Source: an uncultured Pseudomonadales bacterium (GTDB taxonomy: Bacteria; Patescibacteriota; Microgenomatia; UBA1400; PJMF01). Taken from it: 64,000 nt of DNA. The notes beneath the pieces are model-generated. The model was not told the origin of the DNA. It did no database searches and was given only the letters and a program-made list of their open reading frames with translations. Both the position numbers and the translations under genes were made by a program. Of the stretch, positions 10,297 through 60,803 are shown piece by piece; the stretch's first letter is position 1, and each line of letters opens with the position of its first letter. The stretch lies in contig CAZWWE010000001.1 in NCBI GenBank assembly GCA_964637295.1, positions 188,312-252,311 on the forward strand, given 5' to 3'.

Positions 10297-10305
10297 CAAA
10301 CGCCT

Positions 10306-12445: not shown

Positions 12446-12446
12446 A

Positions 12447-12476: not shown

Positions 12477-12490
12477 TAAATTGACACTTT

Positions 12491-13420: not shown

Positions 13421-14059
13421 ATGCTCAACCAAGCAAGCAAACACCAGCGTCGCAGACTTGAAGATTATTCTGAAGTGATGAAATACGAACGTGCTTCGAA
13501 TAATTTTTTCAAGAGTTTTATTCCTAAGCCCAACAATATTCATCTCAATATTCAAGATAAAGACGAAAAAATCGTTTTGGTCTTGCGACAACACCCGATT
13601 ACTCAGGTGCAAAAAATATTCTGGCTAATTTTGGCTTTAATTTTTATTCCTCAATTACTCAGTTTTGCTGGTTTTATGGCTGTTCTGCCAGGAGAATTTG
13701 CTGACGCTTTTAACTTTTTTTGGATTGTTTTGGCCTTTGGCCTCTTGACTAGATCTTTTTTAAGTTGGTTTTTTAACGTTTACATTGTGACTGATGAAAG
13801 AATTATTGATGTAGATTTTCATTCAGTGATTTATTACAACGTTTCCAGCGCTAAAATTGAAAATATTGAAGATGTCACCACTAAAACCATCGGGCCTTTG
13901 GCAGCAGTTTTTAACTTTGGTAGCATTTTGATCCAAACTGCGGGTGAAAAAAATCAATTTGAATTTGAACACGTTCCTCAGCCAGCCAAAATTACTAAAT
14001 TGCTGAATGAATTAATTTTGGAAGAAGAAAGAGAAAAAATCGAAGGAAGAATTAATTAA
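13421..14059 (+). CDS. Membrane protein with a bacterial PH domain (bPH_2 / YdbT-like)
   Basis: 212 aa with two TM helices followed by a PH-like beta domain (YIVTDERIID...). Confidence 0.5.
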   Translation: MLNQASKHQRRRLEDYSEVMKYERASNNFFKSFIPKPNNIHLNIQDKDEKIVLVLRQHPITQVQKIFWLILALIFIPQLLSFAGFMAVLPGEFADAFNFFWIVLAFGLLTRSFLSWFFNVYIVTDERIIDVDFHSVIYYNVSSAKIENIEDVTTKTIGPLAAVFNFGSILIQTAGEKNQFEFEHVPQPAKITKLLNELILEEEREKIEGRIN

Positions 14060-14065
14060 GGAGAT

Positions 14066-14287
14066 ATGTTAGATATTTTTGATTCACAAATTATTGCCGG
14101 CATTCTCAAATTTTTATTCGTCACTGGAGCTTTATTTTATTTGATTTACACCTTCATCGTTTTTCGCCAGATTTACATCATGAAAAAAACTCTGATCACC
14201 AGTTTTTCTCCTGCAGTTAGCTTACTTGGTTTGATCAATTTATTACTAGCCACAGGAGTTTTTGTGGGTTTTTTGCTTTTCCTATAA
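14066..14287 (+). CDS. Small two-TM membrane protein, hypothetical
   Basis: 73-aa hydrophobic ORF that is tightly coupled to the upstream gene. Confidence 0.4.
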   Translation: MLDIFDSQIIAGILKFLFVTGALFYLIYTFIVFRQIYIMKKTLITSFSPAVSLLGLINLLLATGVFVGFLLFL

Positions 14288-14289
14288 AA

Positions 14290-14787
14290 TTATAATTCGA
14301 TAATGGTAAAAGAGTCTTTTTCCAATTTTGGATAGTTTACTTTTAACCATTGCCAAAATTCTTCTTCTTTATTCTTGGTGAGAAAAACTTCAAAATTATC
14401 ATTTTCGTAGGAAAAATTTATATTAAAATTATTTTGATTAATTGGACATTTGGATTTTAAAAGAGAAAATTCTTTAGCTCTTTCTTCAGTTTCTAACGTT
14501 GAATGATCAGAGATAACAATGGGCATTACTTTTACTTCTTCATTTGTTTCTTCACTTACTTCTTCTTTCGGAGCTTCCTGTACAAAAGTTTCTTGTGCCA
14601 ACTCTGCGGGCTGGCGAATTTCTGTTTGATTGCTTGAATGATTAAGCAAAGCACTCAACAAGGACGACTCGCTTATTTCTTCTTGAACTGATACTTTTTC
14701 TTTAAAAAAATCAGCATTTTTCCAAAAATAATAAGGCAAGATGAAAAAAATTAATAATAGCAATATCTTTCTTAAGTGATTTGGCAT
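14290..14787 (-). CDS. Hypothetical signal-anchored or secreted protein
   Basis: 165 aa with an N-terminal hydrophobic segment. It sits 6 bp downstream of the C39-like peptidase gene. Confidence 0.45.
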   Translation of the reverse strand: MPNHLRKILLLLIFFILPYYFWKNADFFKEKVSVQEEISESSLLSALLNHSSNQTEIRQPAELAQETFVQEAPKEEVSEETNEEVKVMPIVISDHSTLETEERAKEFSLLKSKCPINQNNFNINFSYENDNFEVFLTKNKEEEFWQWLKVNYPKLEKDSFTIIEL

Positions 14788-14793
14788 AAAATT

Positions 14794-15969
14794 TTAATCC
14801 TTCCTAGCCAAAAGCAGCCGCTTTGGACTAATAGCTTCGTCATTGTTTCCAAAGCTGCCAGCATTATCAAAAAAATACTCTTTCAAGGCGCCTCCATTTG
14901 GATCTATGACAGTGATTTTAGCGTTGGCGACATCAATATCTTTCACCACAACCCAATGTCCACCTCCACCAAGATTGCCAAAATTACCATTTAACATAAT
15001 TTGCCAGTTACCTTCTTTTTGATATTTTTTTAAATTGTCGATGAGGTCACTATAATTATTGTTTAAATTGGCCTGTCTTATCTCATCTTCTAGAACACCA
15101 TTGCCATTAACACCTGTTCTCGTTTCATAACCTAATTTTTTCAATGCTTCCGCATTTGCCTTCAAACTAGTACCATTGGCGGTAATTCCGTTGGTATTTC
15201 CGATATCATAAAGTCCTAAAACTTTATCTGGAGAAACACCTGTCAGATTTGCTACTGATGTTACGCCACAGCCAACATTGCCAAATTTAATATTTTCTTC
15301 TATGTATATATTTTTCCAACGATTGTCTAATTGGTTAAAAAAAATATCATTTGCGTATTTAGCCGTAGTGGAAACTATCGGCGTCGGAGAAGCACTTACA
15401 GATTTTTCTGTTTTTTGTACATCAGGTTTTGGAGTTTTTTTTGTAGTTTCTGCCGCCAAATAAGACTCAACTAGTTTAAGCGATTGCAAAGTTGGATATT
15501 TATAATTATTAATAGTATTTGGGGGCACCACGACATGAGTTCCTCCAGGCAAAACTTCCCAGTATAGATAGCAGGTATCATTAAGCCAATTGCCCTGTCC
15601 ATTGCAGCTACTTTTTGTTGTTGGTCTATTAGTAGTTGAAGTTGAAACAGTAGTTGGAGTCGGAGTTAAAGTCGAAGTCGGAATTAGAGTTGGGTTGGTG
15701 GTTGGAGTTGAGGTTGTGGTTGGAATTAGAGTTGGACTAGTAGTAATGGTTGAATAAGGTTCACTTTCAAAAGCTTGCTGTCGATTGTCTTGCGTTTGCT
15801 TACTAAGCAAAAAGCTAACAAAAAGACCGATCGCCAAGAAAAAAACAATAAACACATTAGCTAAATTTTTTATTTTCTTTTTTGGAAAAATAAAAGACGT
15901 CTTTAGATCATCATTAACTAAATAGTGGCGATATTTTTCTGGTAAGAAATCTCTAGGATTATTCATCAT
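14794..15969 (-). CDS. Membrane-anchored extracellular C39-like (papain-fold) cysteine peptidase with a Thr/Pro-rich stalk
   Basis: 391 aa. The N-terminus carries DFLPEKY, then a TM, then the juxtamembrane motif SKQTQDNRQQAF. A T/P-rich linker and the motif CNGQGNWLNDTCY follow. The C-terminal domain carries GNVGCGVTSVANL (C39-type Cys motif) and GGGHWVVV (C39-type His motif). Confidence 0.65.
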   Translation of the reverse strand: MMNNPRDFLPEKYRHYLVNDDLKTSFIFPKKKIKNLANVFIVFFLAIGLFVSFLLSKQTQDNRQQAFESEPYSTITTSPTLIPTTTSTPTTNPTLIPTSTLTPTPTTVSTSTTNRPTTKSSCNGQGNWLNDTCYLYWEVLPGGTHVVVPPNTINNYKYPTLQSLKLVESYLAAETTKKTPKPDVQKTEKSVSASPTPIVSTTAKYANDIFFNQLDNRWKNIYIEENIKFGNVGCGVTSVANLTGVSPDKVLGLYDIGNTNGITANGTSLKANAEALKKLGYETRTGVNGNGVLEDEIRQANLNNNYSDLIDNLKKYQKEGNWQIMLNGNFGNLGGGGHWVVVKDIDVANAKITVIDPNGGALKEYFFDNAGSFGNNDEAISPKRLLLARKD

Positions 15970-16028
15970 AAATCATAAAAAATTGCACAATAAAGTGTAA
16001 CTCATTGCTATTTAGATTGACAAGGAAA

Positions 16029-20013: not shown

Positions 20014-22362
20014 TTACAACAACTTCGCTCTTTGATTGATTTCCAATTCCACCAACTCTTTGTCCTTACCATATTTAAGACGAGAAAGTTGTTTGATCAT
20101 TTCAGCTAACTTGGGGTTCATGCGCGCTTCTTGTGCCTTAATATCCTTATAAAGTGACATCGAAAAAGCAGGGACTGGTTCGTTATCAACAATCGTTTTG
20201 ATGTAAGCATGATATTTTTCCACATTGGCCAAATCATTCTCATTAAAAGTTGGCGCAAATTCATGCTGCAAGAAATTAGCATCAGTTACACCCACGCGGA
20301 AAGACACCATCGTACCAACGTTGCCAAAAACAGCGTTTTTGATTTCCTCATCAATTTGACCGATAAACTGGTTGGCCACAATTAAATTGAGACGATATTT
20401 ACGAGCTTCAGACAAAATGGCAGCGAAATCCTCAGTGGCAAAATTTTGAAACTCGTCAACATATAAGAAAAAATCTGGACGTTGATCCATAGGTACATTC
20501 TGACGACTCATGGCGGCAGTTAAAATTTTTGGCACCAAGATCAAGCCTAAAAACTTAGCATCTTCTTCACCCAAAATACCTTTAGACAAATTGCATAAAA
20601 CAATTTTCTTTTCATCCATCGCTTTACGAAAATCAAAAGCACTGGTTGGCTGGCCAATGATATTGCGCATAGTTTTATTGGTCACAAAACGTCCAAACTT
20701 AGACACAATGTAGTCCATCACCTCAGACTTATGGAAATCAGAGGTATTGGCAATCTGATCAGTCCAATAACGCTTGACCATGCCGTCTTTGACCAAAGGC
20801 AAATATTCTTCCACAAACTTCGCATCGGTCAAAATACGCACCATTTCAATAAAAGTACTGCCAGGCTTACACATGATGGTCAACATGGCATTACGAATGG
20901 CGTGCTCAAAACGCGGACCAACAATACCAGTGTGATGGGGATCATAAAGCTTATACATCAAACCAATAATCGAGCTCGCTACAAAATGCATTTGTTCTTC
21001 TGTTTCCGCTTCCATAATATTCATGCCCATGGGTCGCTCTAAATCAGAAGGGTTGAAATAAATCACGTCCTCAGCTCTCTCGGGAGGCATGAGCTGCAGT
21101 ACGTCTTCCACTAAATCACCATGCGGATCAATCACCGCTACTCCATGTCCAGCCTCAATGTCTTGCAAGACCATATCTTTCAAAAATTCAGATTTACCAG
21201 TACCCGTTTTACCAATGATATAAGTGTGACGACGACGATCATTTAGACCCACATAAATATCTCTTTCTTCTCCCCGATAAATCGATTTGCCCATAAATAA
21301 ACCTTCTGTCGGAATTTTATTTGGAGCTGGAGCATTTTTGGCGGTCAAGGTTCGAATATGATGAGTTTCAACAGTTTTATTGGGAAAATGCATGATCGTT
21401 GCCAACTCTTCCGTATTGAGAATGATTGTATTTCTATGAAACATGGGCATGTAACGATAAATAAAATCAACCATAAAAAGGTGTTTAAATAAGAAAAAGG
21501 CAGGCTTTTTAAAGTGATTGTAGGTGGAAGAAAATTGAGAAAAAGCACCCACTATATTATTTAAATTTGACTGAGCCGTAGTAGCGCTGTTTGCTGAAAC
21601 CACCACTCTTATAGAAACTCTAAATCCAGACTTACCCACCTTATTATTGATGGCTTCAATTTCTTTTGGATCGTGAGTGTAATTTGCCTTATCTGGATCA
21701 GCCTCACGTTTTTTTTCTTTTTGATTATGGCTCAAACCTTTGTTTTGCCAGCGATTACCCTCTGGATGCATCAAAATTTGTAAAGTGGCTCCTTCGCCAT
21801 CGCCCATTTTTGACATGGCAGAAGTAATCAGAGACAATCCATCTGTAGGTAAATCTTTGTAAGTTTTAATCGGATAAAAATCAGCTTTATCTAAAACTAC
21901 TGAGGTAAAAGCAACTCGACCTTGCTCATTAAAAATATTTACCTCATCCATTTCGCTGATGGAAGCTGAAGGATAAGCGCCATTAATTTGTTTTTCGACA
22001 AAATCTCGAATTGATTTATGACAGGTTACATAAAAAGCAATGTCTTCTTTCATGCCGACAATTTCAAAACTTAGAGTGTCTTCTGGTTTCAGAAAAGATA
22101 GTAAGCCATCTTTTTTAAGCGAATAAAGACCGGCGAACATTTGCTCGGCAGCATCAATTTTAATTTCATTATTTTTGGGCAATTTTACTAATAAAGTTAC
22201 AAAATTAAGTACGTAGTTTTCACGGCGCTGATTTTTAATTAGAGAAGCAATTAAAAAAATCATCAAAACCAATAAAACTAAGAGGCTAATAAAAACAAAA
22301 GCAGTAATAAAAAAACTATTTAATTGAGCTAATAAGTTTTGAGTTTGCTCATTCATGATCAA
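20014..22362 (-). CDS. Membrane-anchored P-loop NTPase of the VirD4/TraG (T4SS coupling protein) or FtsK-HerA superfamily
   Basis: 782 aa with an N-terminal TM. Walker A is YIIGKTGTGKSEF, followed by VAVIDPHGDL, and Walker B is FFLYVDEFQNF. Confidence 0.5.
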   Translation of the reverse strand: MIMNEQTQNLLAQLNSFFITAFVFISLLVLLVLMIFLIASLIKNQRRENYVLNFVTLLVKLPKNNEIKIDAAEQMFAGLYSLKKDGLLSFLKPEDTLSFEIVGMKEDIAFYVTCHKSIRDFVEKQINGAYPSASISEMDEVNIFNEQGRVAFTSVVLDKADFYPIKTYKDLPTDGLSLITSAMSKMGDGEGATLQILMHPEGNRWQNKGLSHNQKEKKREADPDKANYTHDPKEIEAINNKVGKSGFRVSIRVVVSANSATTAQSNLNNIVGAFSQFSSTYNHFKKPAFFLFKHLFMVDFIYRYMPMFHRNTIILNTEELATIMHFPNKTVETHHIRTLTAKNAPAPNKIPTEGLFMGKSIYRGEERDIYVGLNDRRRHTYIIGKTGTGKSEFLKDMVLQDIEAGHGVAVIDPHGDLVEDVLQLMPPERAEDVIYFNPSDLERPMGMNIMEAETEEQMHFVASSIIGLMYKLYDPHHTGIVGPRFEHAIRNAMLTIMCKPGSTFIEMVRILTDAKFVEEYLPLVKDGMVKRYWTDQIANTSDFHKSEVMDYIVSKFGRFVTNKTMRNIIGQPTSAFDFRKAMDEKKIVLCNLSKGILGEEDAKFLGLILVPKILTAAMSRQNVPMDQRPDFFLYVDEFQNFATEDFAAILSEARKYRLNLIVANQFIGQIDEEIKNAVFGNVGTMVSFRVGVTDANFLQHEFAPTFNENDLANVEKYHAYIKTIVDNEPVPAFSMSLYKDIKAQEARMNPKLAEMIKQLSRLKYGKDKELVELEINQRAKLL

Positions 22363-49639: not shown

Positions 49640-50092
49640 ATGTATAAACCCAAAGATTTTTTGCCAGCCAAATATGGATCTAAAGCTACTACTAAGCCTA
49701 TGGTCTCTTCCCCTTGGAATGATTTAGCTAAAACTCCTAAAATTCCAGATTACGAGAGACCAGCTGAGATGAGTCCTGATCATAAACTCACTGAGCTAAA
49801 GGCCATCGATCAACAAAATCAACAAACAAAAACAACTCCAAGTGCTGAAGCTGTGACTTCCAAAGCTTCATTGGGTAAAAAGCCCACGCTGATAAATCAG
49901 AAACTCGCCGGCTTACTAATGGTTTTCTTTTTAGTCATTGGAGTTTTTGCTAGCTACATGTTGAGCAAACAGAATCAAGATCTGAGACAAAAAGCATATG
50001 TGCCCGACGAACCAAGCGATCCTTATCCTGAAGGAGAAATTTGTACTAACCCAGATGGATGCGTAATTGGGTGGGAAATTGTTGAAAAATAA
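49640..50092 (+). CDS. Short membrane protein consisting essentially of the conserved N-terminal anchor module
   Basis: 150 aa: MYKPKDFLPAKY..., a TM (LMVFFLVIGVFASYML), the motif SKQNQDLRQKAY, then CTNPDGCVIGW. It is homologous to the N-terminus of the C39-like peptidase (14794..15969). Confidence 0.45.
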   Translation: MYKPKDFLPAKYGSKATTKPMVSSPWNDLAKTPKIPDYERPAEMSPDHKLTELKAIDQQNQQTKTTPSAEAVTSKASLGKKPTLINQKLAGLLMVFFLVIGVFASYMLSKQNQDLRQKAYVPDEPSDPYPEGEICTNPDGCVIGWEIVEK

Positions 50093-50106: not shown

Positions 50107-52326
50107 ATGCAATTGAAACAAAAATTAAAAAAAACCAATCTTTTTTTCTTCTTTATTTTTAGCTTAATCCTAGCTTTTGTTTTTACTGAAAATAAAATTA
50201 ATCAAATTCAAGCCGAAGGTTTGGTTGAAAAATATCAATGTATTCAAGTTGCGGTTAAATATGGAGAATCCATAAAAAACAGCAAAGCTCAATTTTCCAG
50301 TGAACCTGATTGTAAAAAACAACTGGTTTATATTTTAAACAACCCGGGTGGACAAAGCCCTGGCGTCTGCGGCTCAACTGCCACTTGTACTAACAACAAC
50401 TGGCAAGCTTGTGGCACCGGTTTTGAATGTTTATATAGTTGTTATACGAACGATGGAAAGCAATGTCGTCTCGTACGGAGTAGCGGAACAGGAGGTGGCG
50501 GCAATGGCTCTTGCGACAATAGCAGTGCTACGGCAGCGGTTTGTCGAGGACTAAATGAGGGAGTAAAACTTTATCAATGTAATTGGCAAGGTAGCGGCAA
50601 AAGCTTACAGTGTCAAAGAACTTTTGGAACTCAATGTGCTGCTGTGGAAATTAACGATCTAGCCTGCAATGGAACCATTCCCATTGAAACTAATCCGCCG
50701 CCCAATGGCACTTGTGTTAATACTGGCAGGCCATTTACTGGTCAATGTGTAAAATTCACCTGTAATCAATGTGATCAAAACGGTCGTTGCGGTGAAGAAG
50801 CAATGAGCAATCGAGAATTTGGACCCTGCGATCAGCTTAATTCTCAAGCTAATGAATGTTATCAAATTGATGCGGTAGATGATCAAAAAAATTATTGCAT
50901 ACTTCCAAATTGGACAGAAATCGTACACTGTCCATCTTCTTGTATGCAAAACCCTGTTCCAGTTAATCCAAGTTCAGAGCCTTCCGACAATCCTTCACCT
51001 ACTCAAAAACTTGCTTGTGGTCAGTACGGCTGTACTAGAAATGCCGACTGCGATAATGGCTTGACTTGTCAAACCGTAGAAGTAGATGGTCGTAATCGAA
51101 AAATCTGTGCCAAAGGTGAAAATCAGCTTTTCTGCGCTGCTGCGCCATCGGTTAAAAATTGTTGTGAAAGTCAACCCATGCCTGTTTGTGCCAGTATTGA
51201 AATGCTCAATGCCAATAACGAAGTCATGCAAGGCAATGACGATGAAGCTTTAAAATTAAATGACAAAGTGCGCTTCCGCTGTTCAGCCAGCGGCAATCAA
51301 GATATAGAGTTTGATTATCAATTTAGAATTTGGGACGCTGTAACGGCTACTTGGACCGATATTACTGATTTGACCGATACTGTCGCCAAGAATATTTCTG
51401 CTCTCTACACTATTAAAAATTTCGGCAAGCATATCGCTCAGGGTCGCATTTGTTGGGGTAATAGTTGTCAGCCCTGGGAAAGTCCTGAAACCACTCCCAC
51501 TCAAGCCTGCCAAGATGATGAAGATTGTCCAAGTGGTTCCACTTGTTATCAACCACCAATGCCGGCTTGTCCTTCAGGCACTTCTTGCCCTCAGGTCATG
51601 CCTGCTAAATATTGCAAAGAAGAAACCGACAACAATACCACTGCTCGCTGCCAAAGCAACGCTGACTGTCAAAATGGTTACACCTGCTCCAGCACGCCAG
51701 CAGGCGGCTGCCCATTAGTGACGGTCAATGGCGTCAAAGTGCCTTCTAATTGTGCTTCTGCTCCAATTTGCCGCCAAGCCGAAGGCATTAGTTGCACCAA
51801 CACCACAGATTGTTTTATGGGCTACAGTTGTCAAAATAGACAATGCAAGAGACAAGCTGGTGCTTGTCAAAGCGACGCTGATTGTCAGAATGGTTACACT
51901 TGCTATCAACCCACCACTGCAGAAATTGCTAATTGTTCTGGAGCAAACTGCGCCCAAGTTGCTTCTTATTGCAAAGAAAAAACCGTCAGTTGTCAAAGCG
52001 ACGCTGATTGCAAAGAAGGCTATCTCTGCTCAGCGGAAGTTAGCGGTAGTAGCGGCAACGCTTCTTATACTTCAATTTCAACTAATAAAATTTGTCAAAA
52101 AATCGAAGGTATGACTTGCCAAAACTCAAGTGCTTGCGGCACTGGTTATGCTTGTTACAGCGGTCATTGCACACAAACCATTAAAACTTGTCAAAATAAC
52201 GATGAATGCGGTACGGGCTATGCTTGTTGCACCTCTTCTATGCCAGCCTGTCCTCCTGGAGTCTCTTGCCCTCAGGTTATGCCCGCTAAAAATTGCGTGC
52301 TTAGTAAATATTGTGTAAACAGATAA
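50107..52326 (+). CDS. Secreted cysteine-rich repeat protein
   Basis: 739 aa with a cleavable-type signal peptide and more than 90 Cys. The repeated motifs are CQSDADCQNGYTCY (3 copies) and MPACPSGTSCPQVMPAKYC (2 copies). Confidence 0.65.
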   Translation: MQLKQKLKKTNLFFFFIFSLILAFVFTENKINQIQAEGLVEKYQCIQVAVKYGESIKNSKAQFSSEPDCKKQLVYILNNPGGQSPGVCGSTATCTNNNWQACGTGFECLYSCYTNDGKQCRLVRSSGTGGGGNGSCDNSSATAAVCRGLNEGVKLYQCNWQGSGKSLQCQRTFGTQCAAVEINDLACNGTIPIETNPPPNGTCVNTGRPFTGQCVKFTCNQCDQNGRCGEEAMSNREFGPCDQLNSQANECYQIDAVDDQKNYCILPNWTEIVHCPSSCMQNPVPVNPSSEPSDNPSPTQKLACGQYGCTRNADCDNGLTCQTVEVDGRNRKICAKGENQLFCAAAPSVKNCCESQPMPVCASIEMLNANNEVMQGNDDEALKLNDKVRFRCSASGNQDIEFDYQFRIWDAVTATWTDITDLTDTVAKNISALYTIKNFGKHIAQGRICWGNSCQPWESPETTPTQACQDDEDCPSGSTCYQPPMPACPSGTSCPQVMPAKYCKEETDNNTTARCQSNADCQNGYTCSSTPAGGCPLVTVNGVKVPSNCASAPICRQAEGISCTNTTDCFMGYSCQNRQCKRQAGACQSDADCQNGYTCYQPTTAEIANCSGANCAQVASYCKEKTVSCQSDADCKEGYLCSAEVSGSSGNASYTSISTNKICQKIEGMTCQNSSACGTGYACYSGHCTQTIKTCQNNDECGTGYACCTSSMPACPPGVSCPQVMPAKNCVLSKYCVNR

Positions 52327-52332: not shown

Positions 52333-53352
52333 ATGAACATTGATCATCAAACCAAACCAGCTGTTTATTTAAAATCCAAGCAAGGACAAGGTTCTCTGCT
52401 CAAAAAAAATAATTTCAAAGTCATCGCTGCGATTTTAGGCATTTTAATTTTCTTAGGTGGAAGCATTAGCGTCTTTTTGATCAGTCAAAAACAAGACACT
52501 GCTCCAGTCGCTCCCAATGCCCCCCAATCTCAACCAGCTGCTTACATTGAAAAAACTCAAACTTGTACCCTAGAATTTGAAGTCAAAGCACCCGAGGAAG
52601 TTGAAAAACTCGCCTGTGGTGAAAAAGCTTGTACTAGCGATGCAGATTGTGCAGATAATTTGATTTGCGTCACTACTGAAGATGAGGATAGTGCAGGCAA
52701 TCCAGTCAAATACTGTGCTAAACAAGACTACAAAGAAGCTTGTCAAGACGATCCAAGTCAAGAAAGCTGTTGTGAGGAGCCAGAAGAAGTTGAAAAACTC
52801 GCCTGTGGTGAAAAAGCTTGTACTAGCGATGCAGATTGTGCAGATAATTTGATTTGCGTCACTACTGAAGATGAGGATAGTGCAGGCAATCCAGTCAAAT
52901 ACTGTGCTAAACAAGACTACAAAGAAGCTTGTCAAGACGATCCAAGTCAAGAAAGCTGTTGTGAGGAGCCAGAAGACAAACCCACTGACGAGCCGACTGA
53001 TGAACCCACCAAAAAACCCACTGACGAGCCGACTGATGAACCCACCAAAAAACCAACTAGTACGGTCACTCCAGATGACAAAAAAAATCAAAGAATTGTC
53101 ACTACGGCTGATTGTAATGAGAGTTGCCAAGCCAATGCTGACTGCAGCAACCTTAGCCACATTTGTTACAACGGGCAATGTCGTCTCGATGTCAATCCAA
53201 CCGATGCTCAGTGCAAACTACCCAATGGTGAAACTGTCATCGTTCGACCAGTCGAAGTGCCAACTCAAAGTGGCCCTGCTAATTGGCTCAACTATGTTAA
53301 AGCCGGCTTAGGCACTTTGGGTCTAGGCGCTTTATTGCTCCTACTTCTCTAA
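52333..53352 (+). CDS. Cys-rich surface protein with an N-terminal signal anchor, a tandem-duplicated 63-aa Cys module, PTDEPT repeats and a C-terminal hydrophobic tail
   Basis: 339 aa. The juxtamembrane ISQKQD follows the TM. The motif CTSDADCADNLICV resembles the motif in the 50107 protein. The C-terminus is GLGTLGLGALLLLLL. Confidence 0.65.
   Translation: MNIDHQTKPAVYLKSKQGQGSLLKKNNFKVIAAILGILIFLGGSISVFLISQKQDTAPVAPNAPQSQPAAYIEKTQTCTLEFEVKAPEEVEKLACGEKACTSDADCADNLICVTTEDEDSAGNPVKYCAKQDYKEACQDDPSQESCCEEPEEVEKLACGEKACTSDADCADNLICVTTEDEDSAGNPVKYCAKQDYKEACQDDPSQESCCEEPEDKPTDEPTDEPTKKPTDEPTDEPTKKPTSTVTPDDKKNQRIVTTADCNESCQANADCSNLSHICYNGQCRLDVNPTDAQCKLPNGETVIVRPVEVPTQSGPANWLNYVKAGLGTLGLGALLLLLL
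52594..52976 (+). repeat. Perfect tandem duplication of a 189-bp (63-codon) unit, 2 copies, inside the 52333 CDS
   Basis: The sequence 52597-52785 is repeated exactly at 52786-52974, with a period of 189 bp that is in frame. Confidence 0.9.
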
Positions 53353-53947: not shown

Positions 53948-54946
53948 CTAAAACAAATGATTATCCAAGAATTTAGGTTTTGCACCCACTCCTGAAGAAA
54001 TAATTTTTTTGACCGATTTTATTTTTTGCAAAACTGAAGCGACCTCTTTTTCGTATTTTGGCAAAGTTAAAACGTGGACATTAAAACCAGTGTTAATCGT
54101 AAAATATACAGGTAAACCAGATTTTCTTAATTGACGAACGGCTTGCATCACTTCAATAGTTCCAGGATAAAAAAGTAAAATATTTGGTTTACTAGTCAAT
54201 AAAATGCTGTGAAACTCCAAAGCTTCAGCTTCAGCTAGCTCTCCCAAAGTAATAAAGTCTTTATTTAAAATCGCTTTTTTAACAGCTGAAAGTTTTGCTC
54301 TAATATTTTTCTGACGAGCTTCAAAAAACAAACTACTTTCTGCTAAATCATGACCCTCAGTTGAACTAAGGCTTTTTTTGTCTTCAGAAACAATAGTCAC
54401 TAAATCTTTGATTGAAAAAGTAGCTGCTGGAGCAAAACTTTGCGAATAAGATTTTTCCGAAGTTGCGCCATCTAACCACTCAACAAAGCCACCGCAAACA
54501 CAACGGCAAGCCGTACCAGAACCTTGACGCGCTAAAATTGAAAGTTCTTTTTCAGATAAATTCAAACCAATTGCTTGACAAGCAGCCAAAGTTAAAGCAG
54601 CAAAACCAGAGCCAGAACTAGAAAGTCCAGTGCTTTTAGGAAAATTGTTTTCTGAAACCACCTTGGCAAAAATGTCTGTTTTTATTAAATTTTGACTTTT
54701 AGCCAAATCTCTAATTCTATCCAAATGTTTAACGACGCGAGAAGCCTCACCTTCTTCCACTTCGCCGCCAATAATCACTTCGTCTCTACTTAAATTTGAT
54801 AAAAATTCTACCGTAGTTGTGCTGTGTAATGAATCCAAAATCATTGAAATGCTGCCATTGGCTGGCAAGCGCAAAACCTTGTCTTTCTTACCCCAATATT
54901 TAACCAAAGCCACGTCACTACTCGCTTGAACGGTTATTTTTTGCAT
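53948..54946 (-). CDS. mvaD: Diphosphomevalonate decarboxylase family enzyme (GHMP superfamily)
   Basis: The N-terminal motif SDVALVKYWGKKD and the serine-rich loop TGLSSSGSGFAAL are present. Confidence 0.8.
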   Translation of the reverse strand: MQKITVQASSDVALVKYWGKKDKVLRLPANGSISMILDSLHSTTTVEFLSNLSRDEVIIGGEVEEGEASRVVKHLDRIRDLAKSQNLIKTDIFAKVVSENNFPKSTGLSSSGSGFAALTLAACQAIGLNLSEKELSILARQGSGTACRCVCGGFVEWLDGATSEKSYSQSFAPAATFSIKDLVTIVSEDKKSLSSTEGHDLAESSLFFEARQKNIRAKLSAVKKAILNKDFITLGELAEAEALEFHSILLTSKPNILLFYPGTIEVMQAVRQLRKSGLPVYFTINTGFNVHVLTLPKYEKEVASVLQKIKSVKKIISSGVGAKPKFLDNHLF

Positions 54947-54968
54947 AAAATTTCCTTTTTATTTTTAG

Positions 54969-55061
54969 TGAGACTCGAACAGCAATTTCAAGACATTTGA
55001 TGACGCGAAAAGATGTATCTAATCGAGTCATCTCTGGCTTGAAATTAGTGTTCGAGTCGTA
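54969..55061. repeat. Imperfect nested palindrome overlapping the 3' end of the GHMP kinase gene; likely a terminator or processing hairpin
   Basis: GACTCGAACAGCAATTTCAAG pairs with CTTGAAATTAGTGTTCGAGTC (2 mismatches). An inner inverted repeat TGATGAC / GTCATC is also present. Confidence 0.45.
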
Positions 55062-56037
55062 CACCCTCTGCATTCATTTCTACTTCAATAATTTTACCCC
55101 CAACTTTTTCAATTTCTCGGGCGATAGCTATTTTGCTAGCCTCATCTGATAAGGCCAGCATACAATCTCCACCTCCGGCTCCAGAAAGTTTGGCGCCCAT
55201 GGCACCAGCACTTTTGCTGGCAGCAATTAAATTTTCCAGTTCAATACTACTCACTTGCAGTCTGCGCAATAAAGTTTGATTTTCATCCATTAACAAACCC
55301 AAGTGTGGCCAATCTTGCTGTTGCAAAGTTTTCTTGGCCTGTTCTACTACAAGAGTAATGTCGCTAAAAATTTTATTTACTGTCGTCTTGTTTTCACTAT
55401 GTAAATTTTGCACCATGCGTACTAAGGTGGCTGTATCAGCCTTTACACCGGTATAACCAACCATAAAAGGCAAATTTTGTACATTGATTGGCTCAACAGT
55501 TTTATTTTGGGCAAATTTACCCTGAGGCGTAATGTAATAAAGCGTGCCACCCCAAATAGCAGCCGCAATATCAAAACCTGAGGCCACTCCTTGAATTTCT
55601 AAAACGGTAGCGTAACAAAGATCAAAAAGTTGATCATTGGTCATCGGCACTTCGTAAAATTCACTCAAAGCCTTAGCAAAGGCCACCGTGCTGGCACTAC
55701 TCGAGCCAAGACCATAAGAGCTTTTAAACTCATTTTTACTATAAACATGAATGCTCTGTTTTTGCGGATATTTTTGAAGAAAAAGTTTATAACAAGTTTC
55801 AATGAAACTTACTTCTTTGGGTAAATTTTCATTAGCAAGATCAGTGATTTTTTTTGAATAAGCTCGCAAACCCAAGTCTGGAGCATCTAAAACAAAGATT
55901 TGTTCGCCATTTTCTTCCACTGTAATTGATAGGCGGCGATCAACAGCAGTCACAATGCAAGGATGACCAAAAACCACGCTGTGTTCACCAAAAAGCATTA
56001 ATTTACCAGGTGCCGAAGTCTTAACTGTTTTTTTCAT
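55045..56037 (-). CDS. mvk: GHMP kinase, mevalonate kinase-like
   Basis: The N-terminal motif TSAPGKLMLFGEHSVVFG and the Gly-rich ATP loop GLGSSSAS are present. Confidence 0.7.
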   Translation of the reverse strand: MKKTVKTSAPGKLMLFGEHSVVFGHPCIVTAVDRRLSITVEENGEQIFVLDAPDLGLRAYSKKITDLANENLPKEVSFIETCYKLFLQKYPQKQSIHVYSKNEFKSSYGLGSSSASTVAFAKALSEFYEVPMTNDQLFDLCYATVLEIQGVASGFDIAAAIWGGTLYYITPQGKFAQNKTVEPINVQNLPFMVGYTGVKADTATLVRMVQNLHSENKTTVNKIFSDITLVVEQAKKTLQQQDWPHLGLLMDENQTLLRRLQVSSIELENLIAASKSAGAMGAKLSGAGGGDCMLALSDEASKIAIAREIEKVGGKIIEVEMNAEGVRLEH

Positions 56038-56899
56038 AAATCATTCCCAATTGAGTTTGAAAAAAATCAAAACCCATTGCTTGTAAAGTTTTTGCGAATT
56101 CTTGAGAGTTTTTGTGCCAGGCTAAAATATAACCAGAACCAGTTTCAATTCCGCCAGCACCAGTGATTTTACAAAAAGCGCCTTTGCTTCTTAAGTGTTG
56201 AATAATTCTCTGAGCTTTTTGACCCACCACGCCAATTTGCTCCAATAAAATCTGATTTGCATTTAATAGCTCTGGATTAAAAACTCCAGCTTGCAAATCA
56301 ACAAGCATTTTTTGACTTAAATCACCAATTTTTTGCAAAGTTGTCCGATTACTTGCTTCATTAGCAACTTTGCGCACCATTTCACCAGTGCTTTCACTAG
56401 CTTCTCCAGAATTTATTAAGAAAAAAGATTGATCAATCAATGTTTTATTTAATATTGGCTCAATTTTTGCTTGCTTAAAAGCAAGCAATCCTCCATAAAC
56501 TACAATGCTCGGATCCGCTCCGCTTGAACGACCATGAATAAAATTTTCTGCCTCTAAAACTAAATTGTAGAGTCGATCGGCATTTAAAGAATAATTATGA
56601 AATTTAAATAATTCGCTAAAAACAGCCGCCGCCAAAGCAGCTGATGAACCAAGACCAGACTTTTCTGGTAAATTTGATACAATTTCGATGGCCACTGACA
56701 TCTTGGGCAATTGAGCGTGTTTGTAAAAAATCTCCAAAATGTGTTGTAAATAAGGATCTTGCTTTTGTTCTTGGCTTAAAACTCCCTCCTTAATGGCACA
56801 AGTAATTCCTAAATTTAAACTCGCCAAAATAGCAGTGTGCCCATAAACCACACTGTGTTCGCCAGTTAAAATAACTTTTCCTCTATAAAAACTAGACAT
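56021..56899 (-). CDS. Second GHMP kinase, a mevalonate/phosphomevalonate kinase-family enzyme
   Basis: GKVILTGEHSVVYG and the GLGSSAALAAA loop are present. It overlaps the downstream kinase gene by 17 nt. Confidence 0.65.
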   Translation of the reverse strand: MSSFYRGKVILTGEHSVVYGHTAILASLNLGITCAIKEGVLSQEQKQDPYLQHILEIFYKHAQLPKMSVAIEIVSNLPEKSGLGSSAALAAAVFSELFKFHNYSLNADRLYNLVLEAENFIHGRSSGADPSIVVYGGLLAFKQAKIEPILNKTLIDQSFFLINSGEASESTGEMVRKVANEASNRTTLQKIGDLSQKMLVDLQAGVFNPELLNANQILLEQIGVVGQKAQRIIQHLRSKGAFCKITGAGGIETGSGYILAWHKNSQEFAKTLQAMGFDFFQTQLGMIYEKNS

Positions 56900-56916
56900 A
56901 ATTCCTTTTTCAATAT

Positions 56917-56969
56917 GAGAGAAAACTTAGTCCTTTAATCTAAGCTGTCTTATGTTAAAGGACTAAGTT
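56917..56969. repeat. Short hairpin made of the same arm sequences as the 57277 element, with the interior collapsed to an 8-nt loop
   Basis: GAGAGAAAACTTAGTCCTTTAATCTAAG pairs with CTGTCTTATGTTAAAGGACTAAGTTCTCTC. The arms are almost identical to the TIRs of the 57277-57447 element. Confidence 0.65.
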
Positions 56970-57280
56970 CTCTCTGCCTTTAGCCCGTAACAAATAATTT
57001 CTTGCGACGCTTCTTTTTTGATTTTTCTCAGCACTATTTCGACTTCATCACCAATTTTGAATTTCTGATGCGCCACTCCCATTAAAGAAATTTTTTCTTT
57101 GCCTAAATCAACTAATAAATAAGCATAAGGCAATAACTCAGTTTGATCAGAAGCAGAAACTTCCATCATTGTGACAGATAAAACTTTGCCTTTTTGACCT
57201 AAATATTTGGACCAGTTTTTATTGGAGCGCCAGTATTCTGTAATTTGCATAAAATTTTTCCATTTAACCAAATAAATCAA
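56963..57280 (-). CDS. DUF35-family OB-fold protein (thiolase/HMG-CoA synthase scaffold-like); the N-terminal zinc ribbon is absent
   Basis: 105-aa ORF with a TTG start at 57280; the first ATG is at 57250. The OB-fold signature LPYAYLLVDLGKEKISLMGV...IGDEVEIVL is present. It lies between the thiolase gene and the kinase genes. Confidence 0.55.
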   Translation of the reverse strand: MIYLVKWKNFMQITEYWRSNKNWSKYLGQKGKVLSVTMMEVSASDQTELLPYAYLLVDLGKEKISLMGVAHQKFKIGDEVEIVLRKIKKEASQEIICYGLKAERT

Positions 57281-57447
57281 AACTTAGTCCTTTAATATAA
57301 GACCATTTGCAGGAGCTGACTGCTAAACATCAATAAGCAATAATGTTTATAGACAGCGACTGCAATGAGTGTAGAAGAAGATTGTTAACTTAAATAAGCT
57401 AATAATTTTCATCTAACGTGTCTTATGTTAAAGGACTAAGTTTTGAT
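57277..57447. repeat. Intergenic palindromic element between the thiolase and DUF35 genes: a 28-bp terminal inverted repeat with 1 mismatch flanking 116 bp
   Basis: ATCAAAACTTAGTCCTTTAATATAAGAC (57277-57304) pairs with GTCTTATGTTAAAGGACTAAGTTTTGAT (57420-57447). The interior shares GCTGACTG, AAGCAATAA and ACAGCGACTGCAATGAG with the 48599 element. Confidence 0.7.
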
Positions 57448-58551
57448 TCCCAAGATATTAACTATTGCCGTCGCGCCACTGCCGCCAACATTATGGGCAA
57501 GCGCCTTGTCAAATTGACCAGCTTCAATTGATGATGCCAAAAAAGCCACCTGTTTTACACCAGTGGCTCCCACTGGATGCCCACAAGCCTTGAGCCCACC
57601 AGAAGGGTTGACTACTACTAAACCATCATAAGTGGCTTGACCTTCAGCAATAGCCTTAGCAGCCTGACCTTTGCTAAAAAAGCCAAGATCTTCAGTGGCT
57701 AGAATTTCAGCAATACTAAAACAATCATGTACTTCAATGGCTTGAATATCTTTTTGACTCAAACCAGCCTGATTAAAGGCTTGCTTAGCTGCTTTTTGTG
57801 TGGCTACTAATTTTCCTAAGTCTTGGCGGTCTTGCAGTGCCAATGTATCTTGGGCATGACCAAAACCTAAAATTTGCGTTTTACGATTGGATTTTTTACT
57901 ACTTAGAATCACCGCTGCTACTCCATCACTAATTGGCGAACAATCTAAAAGTCTAAGCGGCGAAGCAACTATCGCAGAATTAGCAACATCTTCGAGAGTA
58001 AATTTTTTATGAAATTGAGCCTGGGGATTACTAAAAGCATGCAGGTGATTTTTAACCACCACGCTAGATAATTGCTCTCGAGTCGTTCCATAGTGATGCA
58101 TGTGATAATCGGCTAAAACTGCATAAAGCGCTGGAAAAGTCGAACCGTATTCCTTTTCTCTACTAGCCGCTGTCGCCAAAATAGCGCTAGCTTGACTACC
58201 AGAAACATCAGTCATTTTTTCTACTCCCAAAACCAAAACTGTCTTGTATAAACCGCTGAGTAAAGCTTGTTGCGCTGCCACTACTGCCAAGCCACCAGAG
58301 GCACAAGCCCCTTCGACGCGCATCGCCGGCGGAAAATGAGCAAATTGTTCACTGACTAAAGCCCCCAAATGTCTTTGTTCATTAAAACTGCCACTGGCCT
58401 TGTTAGCGACAAAAATTGCTTCAATTTCTGAAGGATTGATTTGTGCATCAGCCAAAACACCGCTCACACCTTCTTTAATCAAATCGGTTAAACTTTTTTC
58501 CCAAAGTTCCCCAAATTTACCGATGTAGTTACCAATTATTTTAATGTTCAT
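57436..58551 (-). CDS. Archaeal-type acetoacetyl-CoA thiolase (thiolase-like / SCP-x family)
   Basis: 371 aa with the catalytic Cys in EGACASGG and the C-terminal motif GHPVGATGV. Confidence 0.75.
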   Translation of the reverse strand: MNIKIIGNYIGKFGELWEKSLTDLIKEGVSGVLADAQINPSEIEAIFVANKASGSFNEQRHLGALVSEQFAHFPPAMRVEGACASGGLAVVAAQQALLSGLYKTVLVLGVEKMTDVSGSQASAILATAASREKEYGSTFPALYAVLADYHMHHYGTTREQLSSVVVKNHLHAFSNPQAQFHKKFTLEDVANSAIVASPLRLLDCSPISDGVAAVILSSKKSNRKTQILGFGHAQDTLALQDRQDLGKLVATQKAAKQAFNQAGLSQKDIQAIEVHDCFSIAEILATEDLGFFSKGQAAKAIAEGQATYDGLVVVNPSGGLKACGHPVGATGVKQVAFLASSIEAGQFDKALAHNVGGSGATAIVNILGIKT

Positions 58552-59626
58552 GCTGACTCCTCATTTTTTGATAATTGGCAAGATCAATCGTCTGCAAAAC
58601 AGCAATTTGCTCTGCAAGCATTTTGCGAAATTTTTTTCTTTGGGCAACTAGATAGCTAGTCGTTTCAAACAAAAAGGCATCGGCTCCAGCTCCAGAGCCA
58701 TAAGAACAAATTAAAATTTTACTTTTAGCGGGAGCAATATCTAAAACTGCACACAAAGCTAAAAGCGAAGCCGCCGCATAAGTGTTGCCAATTTCCTTCA
58801 CAATCAAAGATGGCGCCAATTGCTCTTTAGTAAAACCCAATTGTTTAGCGACCTGCTCTGGAAACTTGGCATTGGGGGTATGAAAAACACAAAAATCTAT
58901 CTCTGCTGGCTGTAAATTAACTTCCTCTAACAAAGCTTTGGTTGCCATGGTTACATGCTTAAAATAGGCAGGTTCACCAGTAAATCTACCAAAGTGTTGC
59001 GGATAAGCTTCTTTGGGTTTACGCCAAAAATCTGGAGTGTCGGTTGCCACTGATTTAGTGGCCAGCAATTCAGCTAATAGTTGATTGCCATTTACTTCGC
59101 TACCAAGAATGAAGGCGGCGGCGCCCGCCGCCGCCGTATATTCCAAAGCGTCGCCGGGGCGAGCTTGAGCTGTATCAGCACCAATCGCCATCGCACTTTT
59201 TGACATGCCTGCTTGCACATAAGCAGCAGCGATTTGCAGCGACTGTGAACCTGCTTTGCAAGCAAATTGTAAATCTGCCATACTCAAAAAATCACTCAAA
59301 CCCAAAGCGGTTTTGGCTACTGTTCCAGAAGGTTTCACGGCATAAGGATGACTTTCGCTACCAATAAAAAGCGTGCCAATATCATTGACTATTCCCCCAT
59401 TAGCTAAAAACCGATCAAGAGCAATTTTGCCTGCACTAGTTGCCAAAGTAATCGTGTCTTCATCAACACTTGGCACAGTTTTAGAGATTACGCCAAGTGA
59501 TTTTGCTAAATCATTATTTTTACCCTGACTTTCTGCAATCGTGCTGGTCAAAACTTTTTGTTTTGGCAAAGCTGCCCCGTAAGCAACAATCCCCACTCGA
59601 TTTTTGTTTATTTTAGAGTTTTTCAT
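58541..59626 (-). CDS. mvaS: Hydroxymethylglutaryl-CoA synthase, short archaeal-type
   Basis: 361 aa with a thiolase-fold condensing-enzyme pattern. The active-site Cys lies in FACKAGSQSL. It is coupled to the thiolase gene with an 11-nt overlap. Confidence 0.7.
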   Translation of the reverse strand: MKNSKINKNRVGIVAYGAALPKQKVLTSTIAESQGKNNDLAKSLGVISKTVPSVDEDTITLATSAGKIALDRFLANGGIVNDIGTLFIGSESHPYAVKPSGTVAKTALGLSDFLSMADLQFACKAGSQSLQIAAAYVQAGMSKSAMAIGADTAQARPGDALEYTAAAGAAAFILGSEVNGNQLLAELLATKSVATDTPDFWRKPKEAYPQHFGRFTGEPAYFKHVTMATKALLEEVNLQPAEIDFCVFHTPNAKFPEQVAKQLGFTKEQLAPSLIVKEIGNTYAAASLLALCAVLDIAPAKSKILICSYGSGAGADAFLFETTSYLVAQRKKFRKMLAEQIAVLQTIDLANYQKMRSQHEH

Positions 59627-59630
59627 GTAA

Positions 59631-60803
59631 TTATCTTGCTAAACGCTGATGAGCGCTGGCTAAACTATGGTTACTAAGGGCTGCTAAGCCAGAAATTTCG
59701 GCCGCCAATACACCCGCTGCGAGAATTGTGACTAGTTGCGATGCGCTAAGATCTTTTTGATCTTTTGTAATGAGATTTCGTAATTCTTTTTGCGCAGGCA
59801 AGTTTGTTCCTCCACCAACACTACCCAGTGGCAAATCTGGGAGATTGACGGCAACATACAAACCTTTTTCTTCATTTTCTACAATCGTAGTTCCTTGACT
59901 GGCTTCTACGATATGAGCCAAATCTTGGCCAGTGGCCATATAAAAAGCTGCCGCTACATTGGCAAACTGCATATTGGCTGAATTAGAACCCGCTATTTGA
60001 GAACCAAGCACATTCTTGGCTTGATGAGTTCTTAAAAAATCCCTAGCATTTGTTTTTAAAACATTTTGCAAAATCTCTTCATTTAAAAAAATCTCTGCTT
60101 GGGCACTATAGCCTCTACCTAATAATTGATTGATGAATGATACTTTTTTATCTGTGCAAACATTACTAGACAAAGCCAGCATTTCTATGCCCTTATATTG
60201 ACTGAGAAACTCTTCCCAAAGTTTCTGCAGGGCGATGGTCACCATATTCATACCCATCGCTTCATCAGTTAAAAAACTAAAACGTACATAAACATTGCGG
60301 CCTCTGACCAAACTCATTAGTTTAATAAATTTAAGATGCGAGCTGGTTTTTTCGGTAATTTGACGAATTTTGGCACTGGTTTTGACTTCTTCCAAATATT
60401 GGGCAAAGGCAAAAGCTTCATTGCCACTTCTAAAAGCAAAAACTGGAGCTCGAGTTATTCCAAAATTGGTCACTCTGACTTGTGCTCCGCCAGCTTGATT
60501 AATGACTTTCAGACCTCTATTGACGCTGGCCACAAGTGCTCCTTCGCTGGTCGCCAAAGGCACAAAGTATTCGGCTGTTTTTTGTTGCTCAATAATTTTG
60601 ACTGGCCCAGCCAAGCCAACCGGCAACGCCACTGCACCCACCATGTTTTCGCAATTTTTTTGATTAGCTTGGGATAATTCAGGATTAACTGCAAAAAGAT
60701 GAGTAAAAACACCTTTTTTCCATTCTTTTTGCAATTGTTCTTGACGCTTTTTAATCATTTCCAGATCAGAAAGCTCTTTTTGATTTTTGACAAAAAACGA
60801 CAT
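59631..60803 (-). CDS. mvaA: HMG-CoA reductase, soluble catalytic domain only
   Basis: 390 aa carrying ENMVGAVALPVGLAGPVKI and the DAMGMNMV motif. Confidence 0.8.
   Translation of the reverse strand: MSFFVKNQKELSDLEMIKKRQEQLQKEWKKGVFTHLFAVNPELSQANQKNCENMVGAVALPVGLAGPVKIIEQQKTAEYFVPLATSEGALVASVNRGLKVINQAGGAQVRVTNFGITRAPVFAFRSGNEAFAFAQYLEEVKTSAKIRQITEKTSSHLKFIKLMSLVRGRNVYVRFSFLTDEAMGMNMVTIALQKLWEEFLSQYKGIEMLALSSNVCTDKKVSFINQLLGRGYSAQAEIFLNEEILQNVLKTNARDFLRTHQAKNVLGSQIAGSNSANMQFANVAAAFYMATGQDLAHIVEASQGTTIVENEEKGLYVAVNLPDLPLGSVGGGTNLPAQKELRNLITKDQKDLSASQLVTILAAGVLAAEISGLAALSNHSLASAHQRLAR

Follow-up and report, generated by a model that had tools for sequence, protein, structure and literature searches.

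The C-terminal sorting systems of bacteria (LPXTG/sortase, PEP-CTERM/exosortase and GlyGly-CTERM/rhombosortase) depend on a conserved motif at the outer face of the membrane, which is read by a dedicated membrane enzyme; at the N-terminus, YSIRK-G/S (staphylococcal and streptococcal proteins), KxYKxGKxW (accessory-Sec adhesins) and ESPR (autotransporters) belong to a short list of motif-bearing export signals. Here we describe a module that would add a new class to this list. It lies in a 64,000-nucleotide stretch of DNA (the whole of which we refer to as the window), where three proteins share a Lys-rich stretch, a 21-residue transmembrane (TM) helix and, directly behind the helix, a juxtamembrane motif of the form [LS]K[NQ]xQDxRQ[QK]A. 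Database and genome searches extend the module to several hundred protein clusters, and we conclude that it is very probably a lineage-specific N-terminal export signal of Microgenomates-type Patescibacteria (bacteria of the candidate phyla radiation [CPR]).

Tiny genomes are the rule among the Microgenomates and other CPR bacteria, which are uncultured; relatives that have been cultivated live attached to host cells, and little indicates which of the many hypothetical CPR proteins reach the surface. The sequence tag allows the surface and secreted repertoire of several Microgenomates-type lineages to be listed directly by computation (the candidates include giant, Cys-rich, lectin-like and cohesin-dockerin proteins, and a papain-like peptidase), and it could be used to seek the cognate machinery by phylogenetic profiling.

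Comparison with described signals

YSIRK-G/S and the module are alike in being restricted to a lineage, in having fixed residues in the hydrophobic core (Gly/Ser among them), and in heading many unrelated surface proteins, often ones with a C-terminal LPxTG, alongside ordinary signal peptides. They differ in where the conservation lies: the YSIRK motif stands in the n-region before the helix and is followed by an ordinary AxA cut, whereas conservation of the module is strongest after the helix (QDxRQQA). The module is also unlike YSIRK in its TM-length helix, in the region that precedes the helix (the head, up to ~250 residues long), and in showing no sequence similarity to it; YSIRK_signal/TIGR01168 had no match in the window proteins or in 86 database carriers of the module, and the YSIRK string is absent.

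KxYKxGKxW and ESPR place an extreme N-terminal motif before the helix, as does the M..DFLPxKY(K) head of some carriers, but this is only one head class (17 of the 141 database carriers described below) and lies 40-100 disordered residues from the helix. The likeness of DFLPxKY(K) to KxYKxGKxW is loose, TIGR03715 (KxYKxGKxW) gave no NCBIfam match, and no link of the module to the accessory Sec system was seen. By analogy, the module appears akin in function to YSIRK-G/S, KxYKxGKxW and ESPR, and it is a member of none. The original prediction, a reading of the window made before this analysis, had proposed the comparison with YSIRK and KxYKxGKxW; it holds as an analogy but not as membership, because neither Pfam nor NCBIfam gives a match.

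Set beside the C-terminal sorting signals, the module is a mirror image, with an outer-face motif, a TM helix and a cytoplasmic basic cluster; like them it is present in multiple copies per genome, lineage specific and joined to unrelated passengers. Unlike them it is N-terminal, and acyl-enzyme transpeptidation would therefore keep the leader and not the passenger. Some carriers add a genuine LPxTG-like C-terminus; LP[EQ][ST]G followed by a helix, in most cases with no basic tail, belongs to their cargo and is separate from the N-terminal module.

In lipobox/Lsp, prepilin/PilD and SipW-cognate signals a motif adjoining the hydrophobic core marks a route beside signal peptidase I, as in the module, which differs in having no lipobox Cys and no G/FTLxE. 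Lipobox L-x-x-C, G/FTLxE and twin-arginine motifs occur neither in the sequence logo of the module nor in the window proteins, and the SipW-cognate and other curated NCBIfam signal models do not match the module. A classical Sec/signal peptidase I substrate has a positively charged n-region, which the module shares (Lys at logo positions -34 to -26), and a short h-region (~7-15 residues, to ~20 in monoderms) with no positional conservation, in place of which the module has 21 residues with fixed positions.

Carriers of the module in the window

Carriers were located by translation of open reading frames (ORFs), a six-frame regular-expression scan and a coordinate check, which recovered at their places all the strings quoted in the original prediction. 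Gene positions given there are also correct, with the amendment that the strand is minus for two of the four genes. We then scored all six-frame window ORFs with a hidden Markov model (HMM) for which 141 proteins were taken from the database and none from the window (bit scores in parentheses below).

49640..50092, plus strand: ORF150, consisting of a head, the TM helix, the motif and a 31-residue Cys-loop tail (60.3 bits)
49655..49675, plus strand: head motif DFLPAKY of ORF150, at the extreme N-terminus
49709..49732, plus strand: second head motif SPWNDLAK of ORF150
49901..49963, plus strand: TM helix KLAGLLMVFFLVIGVFASYML of ORF150, in which the conserved helix positions are all kept (Leu -15, Gly -12, small residue -8, Leu -5)
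49964..49996, plus strand: juxtamembrane motif SKQNQDLRQKA of ORF150, followed by CTNPDGCVIGW
49997..50089, plus strand: 31-residue Cys-loop tail YVPDEPSDPYPEGEICTNPDGCVIGWEIVEK of ORF150
50107..52326, plus strand: ORF739, a passenger rich in Cys, with a classical signal peptide of its own (..NQIQA/EG)
14794..15969, minus strand: 391-residue protein (54.6 bits)
15931..15951, minus strand: head motif DFLPEKY of the 391-residue protein
15805..15867, minus strand: TM helix of the 391-residue protein
15772..15804, minus strand: motif SKQTQDNRQQA of the 391-residue protein, followed by a PT-rich linker
15568..15606, minus strand: CNG..W.N..CY mini-domain CNGQGNWLNDTCY of the 391-residue protein
~14797..15342, minus strand: papain-like (C39-like) peptidase domain, predicted, of the 391-residue protein
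1..4887, minus strand: giant protein of at least 1,629 residues, with its Met at 4887, extending past the left end of the window (53.8 bits)
4801..4863, minus strand: TM helix of the giant protein, behind a short n-region with no DFLPxKY head
4768..4800, minus strand: motif LKNQQDIRQQA of the giant protein
4615..4647, minus strand: CNGVWMNNFCY of the giant protein
52333..53352, plus strand: 339-residue Cys-rich protein, a degenerate member with no DFLPxKY head (20.5 bits)
52420..52482, plus strand: TM helix of the 339-residue protein
52483..52497, plus strand: SQKQD behind the TM helix of the 339-residue protein, without R..A
53257..53349, plus strand: C-terminal sortase-like sorting signal VPTQSGPANWLNYVKAGLGTLGLGALLLLLL of the 339-residue protein

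The E values are 4e-18 to 4e-16 for ORF150, the 391-residue protein and the giant protein, and 1e-5 for the 339-residue protein; the remaining window ORFs all score below 9 bits. Because three scores of 54-60 bits stand against one of 20.5 and a remainder below 9, we count three full members and one degenerate member, where the original prediction had counted four proteins with a shared N-terminus. Its judgment that the likeness goes beyond chance is borne out by these window-independent E values and by a density of one occurrence per 757 kb in control DNA. The DFLPxKY and CNG..W.N..CY motifs, which it had included in the module, are each present in two window proteins but are features of sub-families. 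Similarity among the window carriers is confined to the module, the rest of their sequences being unlike, and no Pfam or NCBIfam family matches the four proteins, apart from a PT repeat in the 339-residue protein.

Reach and conserved anatomy of the module

A profile of 42 columns, made from 12 helix-plus-motif segments, was searched against 1.84 billion cluster representatives (50% identity), resulting in matches to 362 protein clusters at E<=1e-3 (13 at E<=1e-10). Among the best 150 of the 362, 141 of 145 further proteins show Q[DE]xRxxA after the helix. These carriers range from 69 to 7,842 residues in length, the helix starts anywhere from residue 2 to ~250, and the shared pattern is a Lys-rich stretch (Lys predominates at logo positions -34 to -26), a helix of ~21 residues and [LF][ST]QQ[NS]QD[IVL]RQ[QR]A[SAY]. 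Four positions within the helix stand out in the logo: -15 is Leu in 114 of the 141 proteins, -12 is Gly in 135 and -5 is Leu in 137, and -8 is a small residue; positions -12 and -8 form a GxxxG/S/A pattern. Conservation that is strongest in and just after the helix is unusual for a Sec signal, and in known systems it points to a dedicated recognition partner.

Extra copies found in the flanks of genome loci (see below) reveal a second class of helix with a mid-helix Pro, L[SA][IV]P[LVI]T...QQQDIRQ[QR]A, and QDxRQxA is therefore what the two classes have in common. Neither Pfam nor NCBIfam has a model for the module; matches of 30 of 86 carriers to the FliL/HemX NCBIfam models, far under the curated cut-offs, reflect a generic likeness of Lys-rich, Gly-containing helices and were discarded. 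The motif strings were not found in approximately 8 million full texts of the literature, where nothing relevant on signal peptides or cohesin-dockerin in CPR bacteria was found either. By the evidence available here, the module is undescribed so far.

The heads are 0 to ~250 residues long, mostly disordered or of low complexity, and fall into several classes among the 141 carriers:

M..[ND]..D[FY][LI]PxxY, in many cases joined by SPWxDLAKxPKxPxYR as second motif: 17 carriers
Start M[IV]NA.. (MINA..): 24 carriers
..LTPRQRALPK[IL], small two-helix proteins: 10 carriers
Short classical n-region of fewer than 25 residues: 38 carriers (27%)
Other long low-complexity heads: 52 carriers

SPWxDLAK is present in eight of the 141. 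The DFLPxKY head is thus real and recurrent, but optional.

Host lineages

A degenerate DNA pattern encoding [NKHQ]QDIRQQA, run over the GTDB species genomes, matched at least 119 loci. Among the loci listed, 15 have a hydrophobic helix directly upstream, and approximately 100 are in other phyla and have no such helix. Nine of the 15 helix-positive loci come from metagenome-assembled genomes (MAGs) labeled Patescibacteria, Pacebacteria, Gottesmanbacteria, Levyibacteriota or Paceibacterota (Levyibacteriota sits in the Microgenomates group of the NCBI taxonomy), and six from low-GC third-party MAGs labeled Gammaproteobacteria or Pseudomonadales. In five of these six, proteins are 42-53% identical to a 603-residue window protein and 61-69% identical in housekeeping genes, and gene order is shared; because of this identity and synteny with the window or with labeled Patescibacteria loci, we take the labels of those five loci (L102 is not among them) to be wrong.

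Across the window and the 15 helix-positive loci, Q[DE]xRxxA behind a hydrophobic helix occurs 28 times per 167 kb, as compared with once per 757 kb when the same scan is run on the loci from other phyla (the single occurrence there is the pattern match itself). Of the 28, ten are additional copies that lie in the flanks and had not been selected by the search pattern, often in two or three adjacent genes. Among the loci listed, the helix-preceded motif is limited to Microgenomates-type Patescibacteria, of several lineages. The window host itself looks like a Patescibacterium: the window contains an unlinked 23S-5S rRNA pair, S1 and PGK are syntenic with their counterparts in a Patescibacteria MAG, at identities of 61% and 47%, and the gene order around the 391-residue gene is kept in two metagenomic relatives (loci L126 and L127).

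Families of the window carriers

Homologs of the 391-residue protein have identities of 28-97% (database proteins P0004-P0012 are orthologs that retain every element) and preserve the head, the helix, NQDxRQQA and a mini-domain of the form C.G.G.W.N..CY..E.LPGGTHVV, which is duplicated in some; they carry two different C-terminal catalytic domains. Residues 210-391 of the window protein were modeled by AlphaFold2 with a predicted local distance difference test (pLDDT) score of 83-92, and a Foldseek search with this domain returned the C39 peptidase domain of ComA (5xe9; TM-score 0.69 relative to the target), along with phytochelatin-synthase-like proteins and papain-like toxins, at a probability of ~1.0. 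A GCG, a His and an Asp are unchanged across nine homologs. Pfam Peptidase_C39 models do not match the protein, and a PDB sequence search with the family found nothing. We are confident, as far as a predicted structure allows, that the C-terminal domain is papain-like and is C39-like in fold only; the original description of a C39-like peptidase thus applies to the fold (AlphaFold2, and Foldseek to ComA) and not to the Pfam sequence family.

The giant protein is 34% identical over 1,737 columns to the 7,842-residue P0068, with an N-terminus that is alike, and it has syntenic orthologs in L126 and L127. Because syntenic orthologs retain the motif, the copies in the window are not recent duplicates.

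ORF150 has full-length orthologs in two further lineages (P0002 and P0003; 57-59% identity), which keep the helix, the motif and the 31-residue tail; their heads are conserved at the extreme N-terminus and at SPWxDLAK and vary in the middle. It also matches residues 1 to ~150 of P0018, P0019, P0020, P0021 and P0024 (530-670 residues) at 35-42% identity. The passenger that these relatives carry lies next door in the window: ORF739 is 53% identical over 276 residues to P0018 (residues 287-521), and also matches P0022, P0029, P0020 and P0104; the Cys-rich passengers of P0018, P0020, P0022 and P0029 are 43-56% identical to it. In the relatives, therefore, the ORF739-type passenger is fused behind an ORF150-type module, whereas the split ORF150/ORF739 arrangement recurs in L001 and L125, likewise with a divergent ABC-2 permease upstream. 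It follows from these alignments that ORF150 is the module, separated from its passenger ORF739 and maintained in split form.

The original prediction had described ORF150 as essentially the module alone, which agrees with its alignment to the first ~150 residues of proteins of 530-670 residues and with the passenger being ORF739-like. Its suggestion of a remnant fares less well: because the split arrangement and the Cys-loop tail are conserved in two more lineages, ORF150 is not a decaying remnant. We also considered an internal deletion as the origin of ORF150, at which a MAFFT alignment hints by pairing the terminal WEIVE with ..CQxWEIV.. deep in the passengers of the relatives; the stretch is too short to trust, and the idea was dropped.

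Cargo and surface attachment

The Pfam domains found in 86 database carriers are few, all extracytoplasmic and mutually unrelated: Laminin_G_3 (LamG), Big_13, Big_6 (Ig-like), SLH, dockerin, cohesin, sulfatase, DUF11 and Peptidase_M15_4. Carriers from the genome loci add VWA, SdrD_B and fn3, besides cohesin and dockerin. Passenger regions are Cys rich (median 6.5% Cys). An HMM, a count of carriers and a survey of their C-terminal domains had been proposed along with the original prediction; they yield 362 clusters with unrelated extracytoplasmic passengers in several Microgenomates-type lineages, in keeping with its proposal of a lineage-specific signal that marks surface proteins.

Many carriers possess an attachment device of their own. 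Read by eye, 14 of 21 complete carriers from the loci end in a C-terminal dockerin-like repeat (nine) or a hydrophobic sorting signal (five); Pfam scores Dockerin_1 in four of seven dockerin-like carriers scanned, two of them over the curated cut-off. A C-terminal hydrophobic tail is present in 31 of the 141 database carriers, in approximately 12 of them after LP[EQ][ST]G, and TIGR01167 (LPXTG) matches among carriers are weak.

Four Levybacteria-like loci contain a conserved gene pair (L054, 946-3271; L037, 4356-6982; L111, 5718-8000; L112, 1178-2389). The first gene encodes a motif protein with a Pfam dockerin (plus a cohesin in L111) or a dockerin-like C-terminus, and the second a protein of ~200 residues with a plain N-terminal TM helix (MPRKTTILIV...). 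In these loci the motif is thus present in dockerin-bearing and cohesin-plus-dockerin proteins, and the neighboring gene encodes an N-terminally TM-anchored protein without the motif, in which Pfam detects a cohesin in L054 and L037. Cellulosomes show the same kind of division between an anchored scaffold and secreted subunits, and these sequence features point to a possible cellulosome-like surface assembly in CPR bacteria.

The end of the 339-residue window protein, VPTQSGPANWLNYVKAGLGTLGLGALLLLLL, is a variant of a C-terminal signal that is strongly conserved, LP[EQ][ST]G[PS].DWLNWLKAGLG.LG.G..LLLLL. The signal LP[EQ][ST]G[PS].DWLNWLKAGLG also ends P0056, P0065, P0066, P0072, P0078, P0111, P0128 and P0138, and from its sequence it looks like an LPXTG-type sortase signal without the usual basic tail. 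An apparent second C-terminal sorting class consists of [AP]PG[SG]..[QE]T followed by a Gly-rich helix (..VGGII.T..GG...F.L), and was seen at L006 (4646-6058), L054 (4075-5532), L071 (4124-4834), P0130, P0133 and P0149.

The gene for the 339-residue protein also contains a perfect tandem duplication of 189 bp (52597..52976, plus strand; 2.0 copies, 100% identical), which doubles a 63-residue Cys-rich unit and suggests a very recent expansion.

Export, processing and alternative explanations

We infer an N-in/C-out topology and export because Lys residues precede the helix, polar and near-neutral residues follow it, and the passengers are of extracellular type. The Lys cluster (positive-inside) and the helix would insert through Sec/YidC in this orientation, placing the motif and the passenger outside, where a lineage-specific membrane factor would read the fixed positions of the helix and the motif at the outer membrane face. 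The factor would most likely be a processing peptidase; by cutting at the invariant Ala or directly behind it, the peptidase would free the passenger, which would stay on the surface through its own device (a dockerin on a membrane-anchored cohesin, an LPxTG-like or other C-terminal signal, or SLH). In the case of ORF150, a 31-residue disulfide-loop peptide would be released. The variable heads may add a layer of targeting, as the n-regions of YSIRK or KxYKxGKxW signals do. We give this reading, that the module is a processed export signal read by a lineage-specific factor, a probability of roughly 0.5, the cleavage step being the inferred part.

Release of the passenger is supported by the conservation, which stops right after the invariant Ala, and by one passenger family with two modes of export, in P0018 and relatives with the module in front of the passenger and in ORF739 with a classical signal peptide. 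The carriers' own C-terminal attachment devices would favor export followed by release, and so, by analogy with the cellulosome, would the division between motif-bearing dockerin proteins and motif-free anchored cohesins, which resembles that of secreted subunits and an anchored scaffold. As between an anchor and cleavage, the comparative evidence leans toward cleavage.

Several observations weigh against a processed signal. With a cut after the invariant Ala, the Ala at position -1 would suit signal peptidase I, but position -3 would be Gln, an atypical residue for this enzyme (A/V/S/I stand at -3 in classical signal peptides of the carrier genomes and loci). The helix is of TM length (21 residues), and AlphaFold2 runs it on through the motif, with low pLDDT. 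Long heads with conserved motifs of their own would be costly if the leader were discarded, the PT-rich stalks right behind the motif in the 391-residue protein suit a retained anchor, and the conservation of module-only genes (ORF150) could mean that they have a function of their own. Part of the positional conservation is also circular, because the logo of the top 150 rests on matches ranked by the profile itself. Finally, candidates for an S26 peptidase, a sortase or a rhomboid are absent among the 49 window ORFs scanned with Pfam, and no signal peptidase, sortase or rhomboid is found in two syntenic loci.

The alternative that survives best, although we consider it distinctly less probable, is that the module is an uncleaved type II signal-anchor, in which the helix and its juxtamembrane extension form a specific association module that tethers diverse ectodomains to a common membrane partner or to one another and so organizes a surface layer. 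Most of the observations just listed would then find a direct explanation: a TM-length helix with positionally conserved small residues (in AlphaFold2 a single continuous helix, residues 34-63), the PT-rich stalks of the 391-residue family, the long conserved cytoplasmic heads, the conserved module-only proteins and a -3 residue that is non-canonical for signal peptidase I. The helical extension moreover carries a stripe formed by Leu -5, position -1, Ile +2 and Ala +6. However, most complete carriers own an independent attachment device, which would make for a double tether; the TM-anchored cohesins, which clearly must remain in the membrane, are without the motif; and homologous passengers function behind an ordinary cleavable signal peptide.

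A further reading, which we put forward tentatively, would make the motif the substrate tag of an undescribed N-terminal sorting system of Microgenomates CPR bacteria, with a dedicated membrane enzyme that reads the helix and QDxRQQA. If true, this system would be the mirror image of sortase, exosortase and rhombosortase, and would define a whole surface proteome, including the cohesin-dockerin assembly, of these epibionts.

It is improbable that the carriers are substrates of regulated intramembrane proteolysis, in which ectodomain binding would set off two cuts (site-1 at the motif, site-2 within the helix), and the cytoplasmic head would be set free to act as a signal, on the model of anti-sigma factors such as RsgI or RseA. 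The type II orientation, the presence of a destabilizing Gly or Pro in the outer part (half) of the helix and the short conserved motifs within the cytoplasmic heads fit such a scheme, and a few members have weak, sub-threshold NCBIfam matches to similarly laid-out anti-sigma, PASTA-kinase and MapZ proteins. But 27% of carriers are nearly headless, the heads are mostly of low complexity with no recognizable anti-sigma or DNA-binding domain (Pfam finds no anti-sigma domain in the carriers, and NCBIfam gives sub-threshold matches only, in four of 86), and tens of sensors in a genome of ~1 Mb would be implausible.

The idea of a mere leader, handed down among recent duplicates of a single gene family of this genome, which the original prediction had named as its own refutation and to which the sharing of CNG..W.N..CY by the 391-residue and giant proteins and of DFLPxKY by the 391-residue protein and ORF150 lends some color, is scarcely tenable in view of at least 362 clusters with unrelated passengers, syntenic orthologs in other genomes for every window carrier and the dissimilarity of the window carriers outside the module.

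Genomic surroundings

In positions 1..16000 the window shares with L126 and L127 the order rRNA, papain-like peptidase, DUF5657, SurA-like, LepA, (S20), MurJ, PilN, PilO; after PilO, all three continue with a small TM protein, the 603-residue protein and the giant protein. In L127, the place that the 23S rRNA holds in the window, upstream of the peptidase gene, is taken by a LAGLIDADG endonuclease gene, which may sit in an rRNA intron.

The 603-residue protein (4908..6719, minus strand) has a Pur_ac_phosph_N (fn3-like) domain, a head of ~80 residues, an N-terminal TM helix without the motif and a C-terminal TM helix, and is conserved beside PilN/PilO and the giant protein in L126, L127 and L062. 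The small post-PilO protein (6800..7279, minus strand; L126, 18800-19234) was considered as a further carrier and set aside at only 8 bits; it has S.S.ELR.LA (SxxELRxLA) ~10 residues past its TM helix, a loose and non-significant likeness.

A 782-residue ATPase that resembles a type IV secretion coupling protein (TrwB_AAD_bind, DUF87; 20014..22362, minus strand) stands beside a DUF192 protein and a GH3 glycosidase, an arrangement that is syntenic in L126. A complete mevalonate-pathway operon occupies 53948..60803 (minus strand), and encodes diphosphomevalonate decarboxylase, two GHMP kinases, thiolase, an HMG-CoA-synthase-like protein and HMG-CoA reductase. Adjoining ORF150, the region from ~36000 to 48000 is an island of low GC content (0.26-0.30, against ~0.38 elsewhere) with genes for glycosyltransferases, a PMT_2-like protein, two Wzy_C O-antigen-ligase-like proteins, WecG/TagA and an ABC-2 exporter, and may be a horizontally acquired surface-glycan cluster.

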